A DNA stretch of 19,507 bases, from NCBI GenBank assembly GCA_964408285.1, contig CAYOYV010000018.1, positions 1 through 19,507 of the forward strand. Direction: 5' to 3'. Numbering within the stretch: position 1 is the stretch's first letter; every line of letters begins with the position of its first letter. Source of the stretch: an uncultured Nitrososphaerota archaeon (GTDB taxonomy: Archaea > Thermoproteota > EX4484-205 > JAAOZO01). Below, in pieces: positions 1,222-12,090 of this stretch. The notes below the pieces were generated by a model. That model made no database searches and was not told the DNA's origin. It saw only the letters and a program-made list of their open reading frames with translations. The position numbers and the translations under genes are program-made.

Positions 1222-2574
1222 TCATCTAAACCAATCTTGGATGAGACCTACTACAGGTGGTCTAGTGGCTTCTACCCCATAGCGGGAAAAGGGTTTTGTC
1301 AAATGCCTCTGGCCGGTTGGATCTGGCAGGTAGGTTCCCTCCAGTATTCTTCTATTCGTTCTCTCTATGACGGGGACGGCCATTCGGTAATCACAATGTC
1401 TGCATCGATACCCTTGCCTCAACCCCTTGCTATCGCATCTTATTCTGCAGTTAGGACAGATCGGCGCTTTCTTCACATTTACATTGACGAGTTCGAGCAC
1501 TTCTAACTTCTCAAGGTTTAGGAAGATTGAACCATTTCTTTGTCTTGTGCCACCACAAACGAGGACTTTATCCCCTACTGTCAATGCGGAAACAACATGT
1601 CTCAGGCGCCCGGATTCCCTGTAGCATACAACATCGAGCTTGCTCGTTCCTAAATCAACTCGGCATACTACGTGACCGCCTCTTATGATCCTAGGTTTAG
1701 CGCAGACGTTTGCATTGGCGCAGAAGACAATATGAGGCCGTTTCGGAACGGGGGGCTGATTTCCTATGCGGTAGAAGGCTTGGAAATGGGCATCTGTTCC
1801 TTGATTTGTCTTGAATATCATCCAGCCGGCGATTTCCTCATTAATCTTCAGATAACTCAGTGCGTTGAGCACGGCCTCCGGAGTTTCACCTCTAATGCCA
1901 AACAGAATAGGATCGGGGCCATGGGGGGTTATCAGAATCCTCCTGTTGTCAAGGTCGATGTTATTGAACGTAAGGGACCTAGTTCTCTGGTCCATCAGAA
2001 TGATGCTTTGCTTATCTACCTTTCTGGGCTTACCACACATCTCGCTACTCCGGTAAGCTAAGAGCTCGTATGTACAGTCTCCACTGAGGTCTGCTCCCAA
2101 TGCGGAGATGGCGCCAACCGATCCAATCTTGGAGTCTTTGAGGAATAGTATGCTGATTCCGTGACTTTGTGCGAAATCCAGAGCCTCCTGAACGCTTATT
2201 ATGTCGCACAACGCGCGGCCATAGAAACGAGCGAGGGCGCCATTTTGGATGCCAGTGTAGGATAAAGCGACCGCAGGATTTGTGTCGCGTTCTTGCATAT
2301 GTGAATTCCTTTTTACCGTGTCTTCTATGAAATCTGTAAAGCGGTTCATGTCAAGATTATCACCAATTGGATACGAGATTTTGATAGCAGCATTGCCCTT
2401 TGTCTTCCTTGGGAAATTCGGGTTGAGCCTCACGAGGTAGGGGTATTCTATCGGTGTGATGTCGAAGGTCTGCCTTATGCGCTTCACTATCTCGTAGGCC
2501 ACGTGTGTAGTACAGCCACCCTTTAGAGAATCTGTGTCATCTATTCCGATATCCAACCTGGTAGGAATCGACAT
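1222..2574 (-). CDS. tiaS: tRNA(Ile2) 2-agmatinylcytidine synthetase TiaS (the ORF extends to 2649; start more likely 2574 or 2601)
   Basis: Motifs IGIDDTDS..GGCTT, LVRLNPNFPRKTKGNAA, PHGPDPILFGIRG, TNQGTDAH, an OB-fold, Zn ribbon CPNC..CRHC and RHLTKP. TTAAAT on the minus strand at ~2613-2618 favours a downstream start. Confidence 0.95.
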   Translation of the reverse strand: MSIPTRLDIGIDDTDSLKGGCTTHVAYEIVKRIRQTFDITPIEYPYLVRLNPNFPRKTKGNAAIKISYPIGDNLDMNRFTDFIEDTVKRNSHMQERDTNPAVALSYTGIQNGALARFYGRALCDIISVQEALDFAQSHGISILFLKDSKIGSVGAISALGADLSGDCTYELLAYRSSEMCGKPRKVDKQSIILMDQRTRSLTFNNIDLDNRRILITPHGPDPILFGIRGETPEAVLNALSYLKINEEIAGWMIFKTNQGTDAHFQAFYRIGNQPPVPKRPHIVFCANANVCAKPRIIRGGHVVCRVDLGTSKLDVVCYRESGRLRHVVSALTVGDKVLVCGGTRQRNGSIFLNLEKLEVLELVNVNVKKAPICPNCRIRCDSKGLRQGYRCRHCDYRMAVPVIERTNRRILEGTYLPDPTGQRHLTKPFSRYGVEATRPPVVGLIQDWFR

Positions 2575-2666
2575 GGTCTTTGCTTGCGTTAGGTTATGCA
2601 TCTGGTTGTGAGATTTAATCGTTTTTGATTCCTGTAGCCGATTAGGCATTTTAACACCTATAACGC

Positions 2667-3347: not shown

Positions 3348-4283
3348 TTATAAACTCAACTCTTTCTTCTTTTTTATGGCCTCAAATATTGTCAGATGTT
3401 CGAGCCTTACGGTCCCTATTTCTTCGATGAATTTCAAATGGTCTTCCTCCGGAAGCGTGAACCAGCGATCAGTCCATTTCTCTATCCTCCCCCTCCTCAC
3501 TCTCTGCCTCTCCTTCTCCTGAATCTCATGCGGATGGAAACCGAGATCCATGAAGGCTTGCCTAAGTTCCTCTAAGCAGTCCCTATACTTAGAGTACACT
3601 CGTATCATGTATGTCTCACCAGTTTTGCTCACATTTCCATCTCCTGAAAAGAACCCCTTCAAATATGCCCTTAATCCATCTTCATCTAGGTGCTCAATTG
3701 GCACGTGAAACCTGTATGGACCTGTCTTGATACCAATATCGTTGAGGTCATAGAATATCCCCTTATCGTTTATCATCGCCCTTATCATTCCGTCAGCTTC
3801 AAAATAGTGATGCGAAGTCTTATTGTAGACCTCTTTAGACAAACTATCGAAAAGCCCGATGGGTTCCTTATCTTTCGAATTAAGATATGTCTTGTATTGG
3901 CCGTAATATCTTCCTCTGGACTGATCGAAATACCAATAGAAATGATTCCCTCCATCGGAAGCTATTAAGCCGCAAAGCAAGGCTTTAGCCGGGCTAAGTA
4001 TCTCTCTTCTCCCCCTTTCGGATACTTCCAATAACATTCCGTGACTTAAAGGAAAGACGACCCTATCCTTCTCTATCGACACGTCGGAAAAAGTGCCGAC
4101 GGCTAGGTCCCCTTTGGCCAGCTCATATCCTCCGTCCTTTGACTTATACATCTCGTATCCTCCAAACACCTTCACAAGCTCGGGCATCTCATCGAAGATG
4201 CACTCCTCCTTCTCGCCCGACCATGCTGGCTCTCTTTGAGAGAACCTCCTTTCATGCTGTCTTATCGCTGATCCACTGCCCAT
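3348..4283 (-). CDS. Free-standing double-motif LAGLIDADG (DOD/intein-type) endonuclease-like protein
   Basis: Two LAGLIDADG helices, ALLCGLIASDGG and AYLKGFFSGDGN, about 105 aa apart. The pattern VP..L....LRAYLKG..IRVYSK..CLEELRQAFMDLGF..KFIEEIG is typical of intein-type endonucleases. No C-terminal intein HN block. Confidence 0.85.
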   Translation of the reverse strand: MGSGSAIRQHERRFSQREPAWSGEKEECIFDEMPELVKVFGGYEMYKSKDGGYELAKGDLAVGTFSDVSIEKDRVVFPLSHGMLLEVSERGRREILSPAKALLCGLIASDGGNHFYWYFDQSRGRYYGQYKTYLNSKDKEPIGLFDSLSKEVYNKTSHHYFEADGMIRAMINDKGIFYDLNDIGIKTGPYRFHVPIEHLDEDGLRAYLKGFFSGDGNVSKTGETYMIRVYSKYRDCLEELRQAFMDLGFHPHEIQEKERQRVRRGRIEKWTDRWFTLPEEDHLKFIEEIGTVRLEHLTIFEAIKKKKELSL

Positions 4284-4284
4284 T

Positions 4285-5439
4285 TCATTTACCTGCGAAA
4301 GAATTTGTCAGAGCCAACAGGTTGTGAGTGGTTAGTGTCCTGATATAAGATGTCCCACATTCGAATCCGGTGTCAAAAAGCTCCTGAGGCATCCTTCCTT
4401 TGCAGATCTCACAATGACATTCCTCATACCTGATTTCTGGATCCCCCATTTCGTAGAACCTGCCGTTCTTGAAGTAATGTTCATGCTTAGCCTCTATGAA
4501 CCAGGAGAGATTGCTATAGCTTACCCCTTCATGTCTGATTCTATAAGCGACCCCATAGAGAAGAAGTTGCCAGTCTAGGCCGTTGACGTTACGGTTCTCG
4601 CCTAAGACATCGAGGGTACGGGATACGAAGCCTTCCAACAAGCGTTGCTCGAGGAGTTCTCGTGCTGGCATTACGAAGGAGACGTACCCCATTTCAATCT
4701 GCTTCTGGAGTGCCCAACGAATCTGATGCGTATCCGCCCCCTTGACCAAACCAATCACGGGAAGTTGTAGATCAAGAAAATCATTAGCAAAGGTTACTAG
4801 GCGTATTGTTTGGGTCCAAGACTGGTAGAGCGGGACATCAGTGTAAGTATAATTGTCAGGTACCATCGTGGCATCCGGTCGGAGATCTGTGATGAGCTGG
4901 AAATAGTCCTGCCTCTTGAGCTTATCGATGAATTCATCCTGCATCACGGTGGATAGCAGTATCTTCCCGTCAAATCCCAAGTAGTCGTGTAGGCCCTTGC
5001 TCGTGGCGTTAGATAGAACGTTCTCGTTAACTAACAGTTGCCACAGGGGGACAAATATCGCTGGTAGCTTGATCCCTTCGTTCCAGAACCATGACTTTTC
5101 GTCTTGGGTATCGATCTCCGGCACGAATTTAGGGAAATCTACCTTCACCTTGCGCTCGTTCTTGATGGATGGAACCTGCAAAGGAGGGGACCTAGTCTTG
5201 CCTCCAATTGGGCAATACGACCTCATCGTGCAGAACGACTTCGGGTAGGTCAATCCTGTATAAGAGATCCCCTTAATGCATTGCCAGACGAGGCAACCTC
5301 CTGCAGTGCAGCCAAAGCACAAGTCCTTGAGGTAAGGGCAATTCGTACATCTGATTCCGCATCTCCCCTGTTCTCTCACGATCCACTTGATCTCTTTCAA
5401 TAATGTATTTCTCTGCTTAATTCCGTATTTATAACTCAC
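4285..5439 (-). CDS. Divergent tRNA-guanine-transglycosylase (TGT)-fold-like protein with N-terminal Cys-rich metal-binding domain
   Basis: N-terminal CGIRCTNC..CFGC..C..C..C..C (DUF3795-like). TGT-like segments KGLHDYLGFDGKILLS, MVPD, VIGLVKG and LLYGV, plus C-terminal Zn site CHCEIC...THNL. GTG start. Confidence 0.7.
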   Translation of the reverse strand: MSYKYGIKQRNTLLKEIKWIVREQGRCGIRCTNCPYLKDLCFGCTAGGCLVWQCIKGISYTGLTYPKSFCTMRSYCPIGGKTRSPPLQVPSIKNERKVKVDFPKFVPEIDTQDEKSWFWNEGIKLPAIFVPLWQLLVNENVLSNATSKGLHDYLGFDGKILLSTVMQDEFIDKLKRQDYFQLITDLRPDATMVPDNYTYTDVPLYQSWTQTIRLVTFANDFLDLQLPVIGLVKGADTHQIRWALQKQIEMGYVSFVMPARELLEQRLLEGFVSRTLDVLGENRNVNGLDWQLLLYGVAYRIRHEGVSYSNLSWFIEAKHEHYFKNGRFYEMGDPEIRYEECHCEICKGRMPQELFDTGFECGTSYIRTLTTHNLLALTNSFAGK

Positions 5440-5590
5440 CGATAGGGCTCATCAGGATAATTGAGGATCGGCTCCAAGAGTATGAGAGAGTTATTTCCCT
5501 TTGCATTTGCCGTAGATCTTAGGCTTTGATCTTACCTCAGTTGTTCGGCACTCAGGTTAGTTATCTGTGAGGTTGTTAATTCATTTACAG

Positions 5591-5627
5591 CTCTTTGAGA
5601 GTATGCAGCATGAACTTGTTCAAAGAG
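5591..5627. repeat. 8-bp inverted repeat directly 3' of the tRNA-iMet discriminator (possible trailer hairpin or terminator)
   Basis: CTCTTTGA (5591-5598) / TCAAAGAG (5620-5627). Confidence 0.4.
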
Positions 5628-5772
5628 TAGCGGGGCATGGATTTGTTCCGAGCAAAAAGCTCGCTTGAACCATGGCTCTCAGGGTTATGAGCCCTGCGGG
5701 TTAGACCTAGTTGGGCCTTTCTTTGGTCTACCCCATTACGGCTACTCACCGTGGAGATGAGCAGACCCCGCT
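5628..5772 (-). tRNA. Initiator tRNA-Met(CAT) with three non-canonical introns (7/8: 5736-5765; 15/16: 5711-5727; 58/59: 5643-5664)
   Basis: Acceptor AGCGGGG/CCCCGCT-A (A1-U72), anticodon arm CAGGG-CTCATAA-CCCTG with three G-C pairs, T-arm CATGG-TTCAAAT-CCATG. The 145-nt gene minus 30+17+22 nt of BHB-flanked introns gives a 76-nt mature tRNA. Confidence 0.93.
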
Positions 5773-5805
5773 ATTGCCCCGCCGTTGATGATTTTTCCGT
5801 CCGGT

Positions 5806-5812
5806 TATTTAA
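5806..5812 (-). promoter_or_regulatory. TATA box of tRNA-iMet
   Basis: TTAAATA on the minus strand 34-40 nt upstream of the tRNA 5' end. Confidence 0.6.
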
Positions 5813-6336
5813 GAGTTGGGGAATCATTGCAGAAAAAATCTCCGATTATTCCTCTTGCGTTTGGTATCTTCAGCGAACGCTCCTTTTTCAGGGAGGTATG
5901 TCTTCTCGTATGATCAAACGACGCCTACGGCCCTTACATGACGCCACATGTTCACTGAACCTGGCTTCCTAAGAAGTGACCGGAGGCAGGAACCTCAATT
6001 CGAACTATAAGCGGCAGGAAAAACAATGTCCAACGCGCGAGACCTTCGGGTGACCCGGATGGTGAACCGTCAATCCCGTTTCGCGATTCCAGAAGATGAT
6101 TCTGCTTTCAGTTGATTCAGATTTCAGAGACAGATATCCGATCAAAGACGGTCGCGTCTCATAGTTTCAGTACTCGTTCCAGGGGGTGACCCACTGGGCG
6201 GATTGAGTGAACATCTCCACCCCTCTTGCTTTGATTCGTGAACCGTGCAGTAACCTAAAGCCCCAAACAGATTGAGGGCCTATTTGGCGCCCTGAGACCC
6301 CCCGCAGGCGTTTCTACAGCCTACTCAGGGATAGAC

Positions 6337-12016: not shown

Positions 12017-12090
12017 GGGCCGGTAGTCTAACCTGGCTAGGATACCACTCTTACGAGGTGGTGGCACCGGTTCAAATCCGGTCCGGCCCA
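12017..12090 (+). tRNA. tRNA-Val(TAC), intronless
   Basis: GGGCCGG/CCGGCCC-A acceptor, CCACT-CTTACGA-GGTGG anticodon arm, ACCGG-TTCAAAT-CCGGT T-arm. Confidence 0.97.

Follow-up and report, generated by a model that had tools for sequence, protein, structure and literature searches.

An initiator tRNA-Met gene with three predicted introns and a leader copy of its acceptor strand that may assist splicing

The stretch of DNA analyzed here (19,507 nt, hereafter the window) is contig C18 of assembly G000, which comprises 1.82 Mb in 46 contigs and is 93.7% complete. It carries what is very probably a real initiator tRNA-Met gene interrupted by three introns, which we infer from the sequence to be removed by the splicing endonuclease EndA. 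The gene as such is a further example of a known multi-intron type of tRNA gene; the new element is a 7-nt copy of the 5′ strand of the acceptor stem, located in the leader immediately upstream of the tRNA. Modeling of the precursor suggests that this copy may well act as a stand-in strand during the splicing of intron 1, a role that we hold to be a good possibility while stopping short of calling it probable. The essential initiator tRNA of this organism, encoded in a sole copy, would hang on three noncanonical splicing events, one of which borrows the acceptor stem.

The gene runs on the minus strand from position 5772 down to position 5628 of the window and spans 145 nt (Table 1). Removal by script of pre-tRNA nucleotides 8 to 37 (30 nt), 46 to 62 (17 nt), and 109 to 130 (22 nt) leaves 76 nt, which ARAGORN recognizes as tRNA-Met(cat) with a regular four-armed cloverleaf, with an acceptor stem of 7 bp, a D stem of 4 bp, an anticodon stem of 5 bp, and a T stem of 5 bp. 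The same program reports 0 tRNA genes in the unspliced 145 nt. Archaeal initiator tRNAs are marked by an A1:U72 pair, three G:C pairs at 29-31:39-41, and a purine11:pyrimidine24 pair. All of these are found in the spliced product, as A1:U72, G29-31:C39-41 (the three G:C pairs at the foot of the anticodon stem), and G11:C24. Together with the cloverleaf and the CAU anticodon obtained by in silico splicing, these marks bear out the initiator identity that had been proposed in the initial annotation of this DNA. A1:U72 is also named as an initiator mark in PMC8450103.

Table 1. Predicted features of the initiator tRNA-Met locus (positions are those of the window)
Feature	Coordinates	Strand	Remarks
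TATA-box-like element TTAAATAA	5805..5812	minus	33-40 nt upstream of mature position 1; sequence reading
Leader copy of acceptor 5′ strand, GGCGGGG	5777..5783	minus	putative function
Spacer CAAT, 4 nt, between leader copy and tRNA	5776-5773	minus	
Exon 1, tRNA positions 1-7	5766..5772	minus	acceptor 5′ strand (AGCGGGG)
Intron 1, 30 nt	5736..5765	minus	position 7/8
Exon 2, positions 8-15	5728..5735	minus	
Intron 2, 17 nt	5711..5727	minus	position 15/16, D loop
Exon 3, positions 16-58	5665..5710	minus	anticodon arm with CAU and three G-C pairs
Intron 3, 22 nt	5643..5664	minus	position 58/59, T loop
Exon 4, positions 59-73	5628..5642	minus	T-stem 3′ strand, acceptor 3′ strand, discriminator A

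Comparison of the spliced product with six uninterrupted initiator genes of relatives gave identity at 65 to 69 of the 76 positions. Exon 3 matched 24 of 41 related genomes by BLAST (E ≤ 0.001) and was the sole part of the gene found in this way in the relatives. Contigs from other sediment runs, which may represent related samples, cover the locus with 0 differences (X7 over 5300-5903 and X8 over 5300-5885). No intronless form of the gene and no joints were seen in the contigs of four DNA runs. A search for RNA runs covering 5300-6100 returned none.

For scoring, the EndA motif was taken as a central helix of 4 bp, formed by the four exon bases just ahead of the 5′ bulge and the four intron bases just ahead of the 3′ bulge; one 3-nt bulge lies on each strand and is taken to be cut between its second and third nucleotides. 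Intron 1 has the central helix GCGG/CCGT, which uses tRNA nucleotides 2 to 5, the bulges GG↓T and AA↓T, and an inner stem of 9 bp; having no outer helix, it is of the relaxed HBh' type. The central helix of intron 2 is GGGT/GCCC (D-stem nucleotides 10 to 13), flanked by the bulges AG↓A and AA↓C, with one inner and two outer pairs, and that of intron 3 is GTTC/GAAC, with the bulges AA↓G and AA↓A and an inner stem of 5 bp. Expressed as central, inner, and outer base pairs, the three motifs are (4,9,0), (4,1,2), and (4,5,1), and they depart from the strict hBHBh' form in their outer helices (0, 2, and 1 bp) and in the single inner pair of intron 2. Every helix and bulge listed in the initial annotation was recovered in this geometry check.

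The boundaries were also derived without reference to any motif, by a spliced alignment with free long gaps whose templates were 92 compact mature tRNAs taken from three further genomes in the phylum. Applied to the whole genome, this alignment returns the locus with exon blocks of 7, 8, 6+36, and 21 nt separated by gaps of 30, 17, (1), and 22 nt, where the last block consists of the 15 nt of exon 4 and an overrun into the trailer. An EndA motif is present at all three intron boundaries found in this way, and these coincide exactly with the boundaries placed previously. Script splicing, motif-free alignment, and motif geometry thus agree on three introns at 7/8, 15/16, and 58/59, none of them at the canonical site, and the short exons 1 and 2 (7 and 8 nt) are the same in script splicing and in the motif-free alignment.

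The frequency of such motifs was gauged by drawing 200,000 boundary pairs at random from this window, with lengths equal to those of the introns. A 4/4 central helix occurred in 1.87% of the pairs, a central helix with at least one inner pair in 0.67%, and a central helix with at least five inner pairs in 0.014%. Since introns 1, 2, and 3 can be shifted among 2, 1, and 4 placements, respectively, that give an identical product, simple multiplication of these rates puts the occurrence of all three motifs by chance at about 1e-9. Across the genome, a 4/4 helix was found at a product-equivalent boundary in 27 of 54 aligned gaps, for an expectation of about 3%.

The enzymes that would process such motifs are encoded in the genome. 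There are two EndA paralogues, of 194 aa (alpha) and 217 aa, encoded on contigs C4 and C8, respectively. The 194-aa protein is similar to the S. tokodaii (2cv8, E 2e-45) and A. pernix (3p1z_B, E 3e-43) catalytic subunits and retains Tyr/His/Lys; its segment VPKPK is aligned over VEKPR of A. pernix, with a Lys at K44. This residue of A. pernix is described as a Crenarchaea-specific loop lysine tied to the cleavage of relaxed motifs, and the relaxed HBh' and BHL forms, to which the three motifs conform, are described in the same source (PMC6379350). The 217-aa paralogue carries Thr at the position of the catalytic His of M. jannaschii EndA, which fits a structural partner subunit. The type of EndA, a point left for follow-up by the initial annotation, is thus the two-subunit one, with the crenarchaeal loop lysine in alpha. 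Since RtcB is encoded as well (contig C15, 560 bits), the predicted enzyme set for relaxed motifs is in place. Introns 1 and 2, of which the former lacks an outer helix and the latter has one inner pair, would rely on an enzyme of such broad specificity.

Interruptions of the initiator gene vary among relatives. The class to which the window belongs is represented by 26 species-level genomes in the set examined, and the three nearest EndA loci come from MAGs labelled Nitrososphaera sp., Thaumarchaeota archaeon, and Ca. Brockarchaeota archaeon, at 67 to 70% identity. The initiator gene is uninterrupted in 13 genomes of one genus of the same order, and another member of that genus carries an insert in the D loop. 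Within the same family, G003 has a single initiator intron, of 17 nt, in the D loop, and G002 has two, one of 17 nt following position 6 and one of 22 nt in the T loop; the G002 gene, which has a variant acceptor, was parsed by eye, and its central helix has only 3/4 pairs. Two genomes of two other families (G239 and G442) have a 31-nt initiator intron at 7/8 of the same design as intron 1 of G000, with related ends (inner stem CT.C...GTAG, then CCGY, then AA). A metagenome contig (L177) has a 30-nt intron at 7/8 with a few differences from intron 1, two of which convert G-U pairs of the inner stem to Watson-Crick pairs. Intron 2 is absent from L177, G239, G442, and G002, and T-loop introns at or adjoining 58/59 occur in G002 and in contigs of other organisms. 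The three introns of the G000 gene differ in history.

The 7/8 introns of G239 and G442 were brought up by a pattern scan, which covered 401 genomes of the phylum and 201 from another class. The scan was noisy: 7 of the 401 genomes matched, versus 5 matches with the reversed control, and only 3 of the matches were initiator genes. Matches in G082, G156, and G294 were rejected as coding-like sequence without a tRNA, and that in G045 was not found in its locus. Given the 7/8 introns of G239, G442, and L177, the initiator 7/8 intron is rare but not unique. The initial annotation had treated 7/8 as an unfamiliar site. It is indeed absent from the position lists of the reviews, but it recurs in G239, G442, and L177 and in tRNA-Leu(GAG) of G000 itself. 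The position 3/4 is termed an extreme case (PMC4090602), and reviews list 3/4, 20/21, 22/23, 25/26, 29/30, 30/31, 45/46, 53/54, 56/57, 59/60 “etc.”; the available text of the reviews on archaeal tRNA introns does not name 7/8, which may be listed in primary position catalogues.

Further interruptions of the acceptor stem were noted in G377 and in three genomes of one genus, where they are tentatively read as 4/5 introns. The initiator genes at L166 (G377; 1501-1670), L173 (G422), and L174 (G475) appear to have four interruptions, in the acceptor strand (4/5, with AGCGGGG upstream), the D loop, 37/38, and the variable region, where older reviews give three as the maximum.

The leader copy in G000, GGCGGGG, is identical to the true strand, AGCGGGG, at 6 of 7 positions and pairs with the 3′ acceptor strand at 7 of 7. 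The center of an archaeal TATA box lies about 26 to 27 nt before the transcription start. From its position, the TATA-like box would place the start about 10 to 11 nt upstream of the tRNA, at the copy. Nucleotides 2 to 5 of the acceptor stem are needed by the motif of intron 1 and would otherwise be held by the 3′ strand, and this is why the leader copy is proposed as a stand-in. We propose that a single precursor of about 156 nt would start at the leader copy. The 3′ part of each intron would pair over 4 bp with the exon just before the cut and so offer a 3-nt bulge to EndA, and pairing of the leader copy with the 3′ acceptor strand would leave the true strand free for the intron 1 motif. With three local splice motifs formed, EndA would cut and RtcB would join, while the copy would tether the 18-nt piece of leader and exon 1 to the body of the molecule during cutting and joining. 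With intron 1 excised and exon 1 running directly into U8, the true strand would displace the copy, and removal of the leader by RNase P and 3′ trimming would follow splicing. The gene sequence has no trailing CCA, so that CCA would be added after trimming. A copy that tethers exon 1 until ligation implies that splicing would have to precede trimming by RNase P.

A different account of the same element is that the gene is spliced as described and that the copy is a functionless relic of a small duplication, with the motif of intron 1 cut cotranscriptionally before the 3′ strand is made. We regard this account as possible, though less likely than not; folding and the distribution of the copies bear on both accounts.

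Folding energies were nearest-neighbor estimates at 37 and 60°C for protein-free RNA. When the 145-nt precursor is folded alone, the acceptor stem forms and the GCGG/CCGT helix is absent; for the first 40 to 66 nt of the transcript, the minimum-energy structure is the exact motif of intron 1. These in silico folds support the earlier proposal that this motif competes with the acceptor stem, and the fold of the short transcripts is also what cotranscriptional cutting beside a functionless copy would call for. The ordered refolding that had been deduced from the competition holds in part: the competition is real in silico, but the leader copy takes most of it away, which softens the need for a fixed order. 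Indeed, in the minimum-energy structures of the four genes tested, the 3′ acceptor strand pairs with the copy and not with the true strand. For G000, the ensemble that combines the paired copy with the intron 1 helix lies 0.6 kcal/mol from the free ensemble, and the ensemble with the true acceptor stem lies 7.5 kcal/mol from it. Similar values were obtained for the relatives: the former ensemble is within 0.6 kcal/mol (G000 and G442) or 0.3 kcal/mol (G239, one copy) of the free ensemble, and the latter is 3.8 to 7.5 kcal/mol from it in G000, G442, and G239.

The cost of forming the intron 1 helix in G000 is 0.5 kcal/mol with the leader, 8.2 kcal/mol without it, and 1.8 kcal/mol on average with shuffled leaders, a control that is weak for this gene because any G-rich leader can pair with the C-rich 3′ strand. 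In six of seven genes, the cost is 0.0 to 0.6 kcal/mol with the native leader; it is 3.2 to 8.2 kcal/mol when the leader is removed, and the means for shuffled leaders are 0.9 to 5.5 kcal/mol. That shuffled G-rich leaders yield part of the effect speaks for a copy without function. For tRNA-Leu(GAG) the copy gave no folding help, with costs of 9.9 kcal/mol with the leader and 15.6 kcal/mol without it.

The distribution of the copies is harder to reconcile with a relic. Leader copies stand beside the 6/7 or 7/8 introns of all five such initiator genes (G000, G002, G239, G442, and L177), whereas no second copy of the acceptor strand was found within 260 nt in any of the 19 initiator genes whose acceptor strand has no intron; 14 of these 19 controls are from one genus and hence are not independent. 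The copy in G002, GGCGAGG, follows the variant acceptor of that gene (A5), and those in G239 (two copies), G442 (one), and L177 (one) are all identical to the true strand of their own gene. The 7 nt are kept although the spacers of G000, L177, G239, and G442 (CAAT, ATGAT, AAT, and CAAAACAC, respectively) and the flanks are unrelated, which argues against a mere remnant of duplication. The tandem arrangement in G239 (L167, 1019-1038) consists of exact AGCGGGG plus AAT twice before exon 1, which makes a 10-nt unit three times in a row.

Within G000, a copy of at least 6/7 identity lies within 35 nt upstream of all four genes whose first intron is at or before nucleotide 10, versus 3 of the remaining 31 genes, where about 1.2 would be expected by chance according to our own arithmetic. 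Two genes favor a copy without function: in tRNA-Leu(GAG), the 7/8 intron is accompanied only by a copy of 6/7 identity that lies 24 nt upstream, and tRNA-Arg(CCU), whose acceptor carries no intron, is preceded by an exact 7/7 copy at a distance of 17 nt. By its TATA spacing, the Arg(CCU) copy may lie upstream of the transcription start, and it is either a counterexample to or a relic under the leader-copy idea. It is found at about 46954-46960 in minus-strand coordinates of contig C8, with the tRNA at 46971. On the other side, if a 7-nt exon had no tether and only the 4 bp shared with the excised intron kept it in place, it would readily be lost after cleavage. We prefer the stand-in role of the copy.

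The literature found on archaeal tRNA introns, BHB motifs, and acceptor stems does not describe leader copies. It is tentatively suggested, with somewhat less assurance than for the role of the copy in G000, that such a copy is a selected cis-acting helper wherever archaeal introns arise at positions 4 to 10, which would be a general rule that has gone undescribed. If the copy is a stand-in strand, it would explain how introns in the acceptor stem are tolerated, it would fix the order of maturation with splicing before 5′ trimming, and it would provide a simple annotation signature for such genes.

We also considered whether the upstream copy is the real exon 1, or an alternative one, with the spacer and the proximal AGCGGGG inside a 41-nt intron. 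Either copy could supply the exon strand of the helix GCGG/CCGT, and in G239, G442, and L177, where the copies equal the true strand, the same mature tRNA would result either way. In G000 and G002, however, the copy begins with G and would give G1-U72 instead of the initiator pair A1:U72; moreover, only the proximal copy sets a 3-nt bulge against the 9-bp stem, the distal one leaving 11 unpaired nucleotides, and we consider this arrangement very unlikely. Least probable of all is that the locus is decaying or silent and that the working initiator gene is hidden in the ~6% of the genome missing from the assembly. The 46 contigs, the 93.7% completeness, and the about nine expected isoacceptors that the census did not find speak for this; against it, all stem pairs and initiator marks are intact after splicing, a dead gene would not keep three splice motifs intact, the interrupted genes of relatives have no second copy in the loci examined, and most other tRNA genes of G000 are interrupted too.

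The search for another initiator gene, raised by the initial annotation, returned one initiator-type anticodon arm in the 1.82 Mb of the assembly, that of the present gene; as the assembly is 93.7% complete, a second gene could sit in the missing part of the genome. The other CAU tRNA, on contig C14, carries G1:C72 and is interrupted by introns at 15/16 and 37/38.

Interrupted tRNA genes are common in this genome. The motif-free census gave 37 tRNA loci, 35 of which were confirmed as cloverleaves once spliced, and about nine expected isoacceptors were absent from it. By number of introns, the loci divide into four with none, 16 with one, 13 with two, and four with three, which amounts to about 54 introns, or 1.46 per gene, a figure that is approximate because some boundaries and two loci are unsettled. 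The value is close to the 1.54 introns per gene given for Pyrobaculum calidifontis (bioRxiv 10.64898/2026.10.13.758758). Introns in the D loop (14/15 or 15/16) and in the T loop occur in many of the genes. Introns near the 5′ end occur in tRNA-Leu(GAG) (7/8, 35 nt), tRNA-Ser(GGA) (6/7, 16 nt), and tRNA-Gln(UUG) (10/11, 24 nt), and all three show a 4/4 central helix. The genome-wide positions are approximate, since automatic choice of boundaries mislabelled several other tRNAs (Ser-GGA as Pro, for example). Further intron-rich loci are exemplified by C1 44770-44892, C8 53738-53896, and C6 39846-39970.

Such genes largely escape common annotation tools. Both ARAGORN and the Rfam library found only tRNA-Val at 12017-12090 in the window, so that the suspicion that standard annotation misses the initiator gene proved true for ARAGORN and the Rfam tRNA model. 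Above its cutoff, the Rfam tRNA model found 17 genes in G000, versus 32, 42, and 46 in three relatives, and these common finders detect fewer than half of the tRNA genes of G000. A probable tRNA-Leu(CAA) lies at 47-185 of the window on the minus strand, with one insertion of about 51 to 59 nt near the T arm whose boundaries are approximate; Rfam gave only a weak match to it (117-185, E 4.4). The window also contains a gene for TiaS, the agmatidine synthetase for tRNA-Ile2 (1222-2649, minus strand). Two CAU tRNA genes were found in G000, the initiator and the G1:C72 gene (C14, minus-strand coordinates 24122-24250). With TiaS present and two CAU genes, either tRNA-Ile2 or elongator tRNA-Met is hidden or unassembled.

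Multiple introns have been described in several archaea. Up to three introns per tRNA gene are given for Thermoproteales (PMC4390854, PMC4033280, PMC8450103), which confirms the statement in the initial annotation that triple-intron tRNAs occur there; examples with three introns are Pyrobaculum calidifontis tRNA-Glu(UUC) and P. islandicum tRNA-Pro(UGG) (PMC4390854, PMC4090602, PMC8450103). The G000 gene resembles what is described for this order in having no more than three short introns with BHB or relaxed BHB motifs, at noncanonical sites, together with a two-subunit EndA, and in being missed by gene finders. It differs in that there are no named Thermoproteales among the nearest relatives of G000, in that all three of its introns lie away from the canonical site, and in its intron at the acceptor/position-8 joint with a leader copy, a combination that the available text on Thermoproteales does not mention.

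A 2026 preprint gives more than two intervening sequences per gene on average, and up to five, for Asgard archaea, where annotators miss D-arm introns and BHB enrichment was detected by a motif-free census. G000 belongs to another phylum; in the available text of the preprint, acceptor and junction insertions appear only as “other” and leader copies are not mentioned. The fragmentation of archaeal tRNA genes thus reaches beyond the classic Thermoproteales and Asgard examples.

The initiator tRNA of Thermofilum pendens is permuted, with its junction at 59/60 (PMC3218864). It is likewise an essential single-copy initiator that needs EndA processing in the T loop according to this source, but the four exons of the G000 gene are collinear on one strand within 145 nt and are neither permuted nor split. 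Ordered processing of several BHB motifs has a precedent in Cyanidioschyzon merolae (PMC3728597); for the G000 gene, unlike that case, the order is known only as a proposal.

Directly downstream of the initiator tRNA lies a pair of genes on the minus strand (window 3348-5439), which encode a 384-aa protein and then a 311-aa protein with a LAGLIDADG domain. A homing-endonuclease link to the initiator gene was considered and rejected, since the pair is not beside the initiator in G002, G003, or G012; with the query used, the pair was not found in G239 or G442. For the 384-aa protein there was only a weak TGT-like match at the C terminus (E 0.002). The pair looks like a mobile or tRNA-linked element. 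The 384-aa family has eight copies in G000, four of which have a tRNA gene no more than 400 nt away (iMet, Tyr, Ser-GCU, and Lys-CUU), and several copies of it are present in G012, some with stop codons and several beside tRNA matches.
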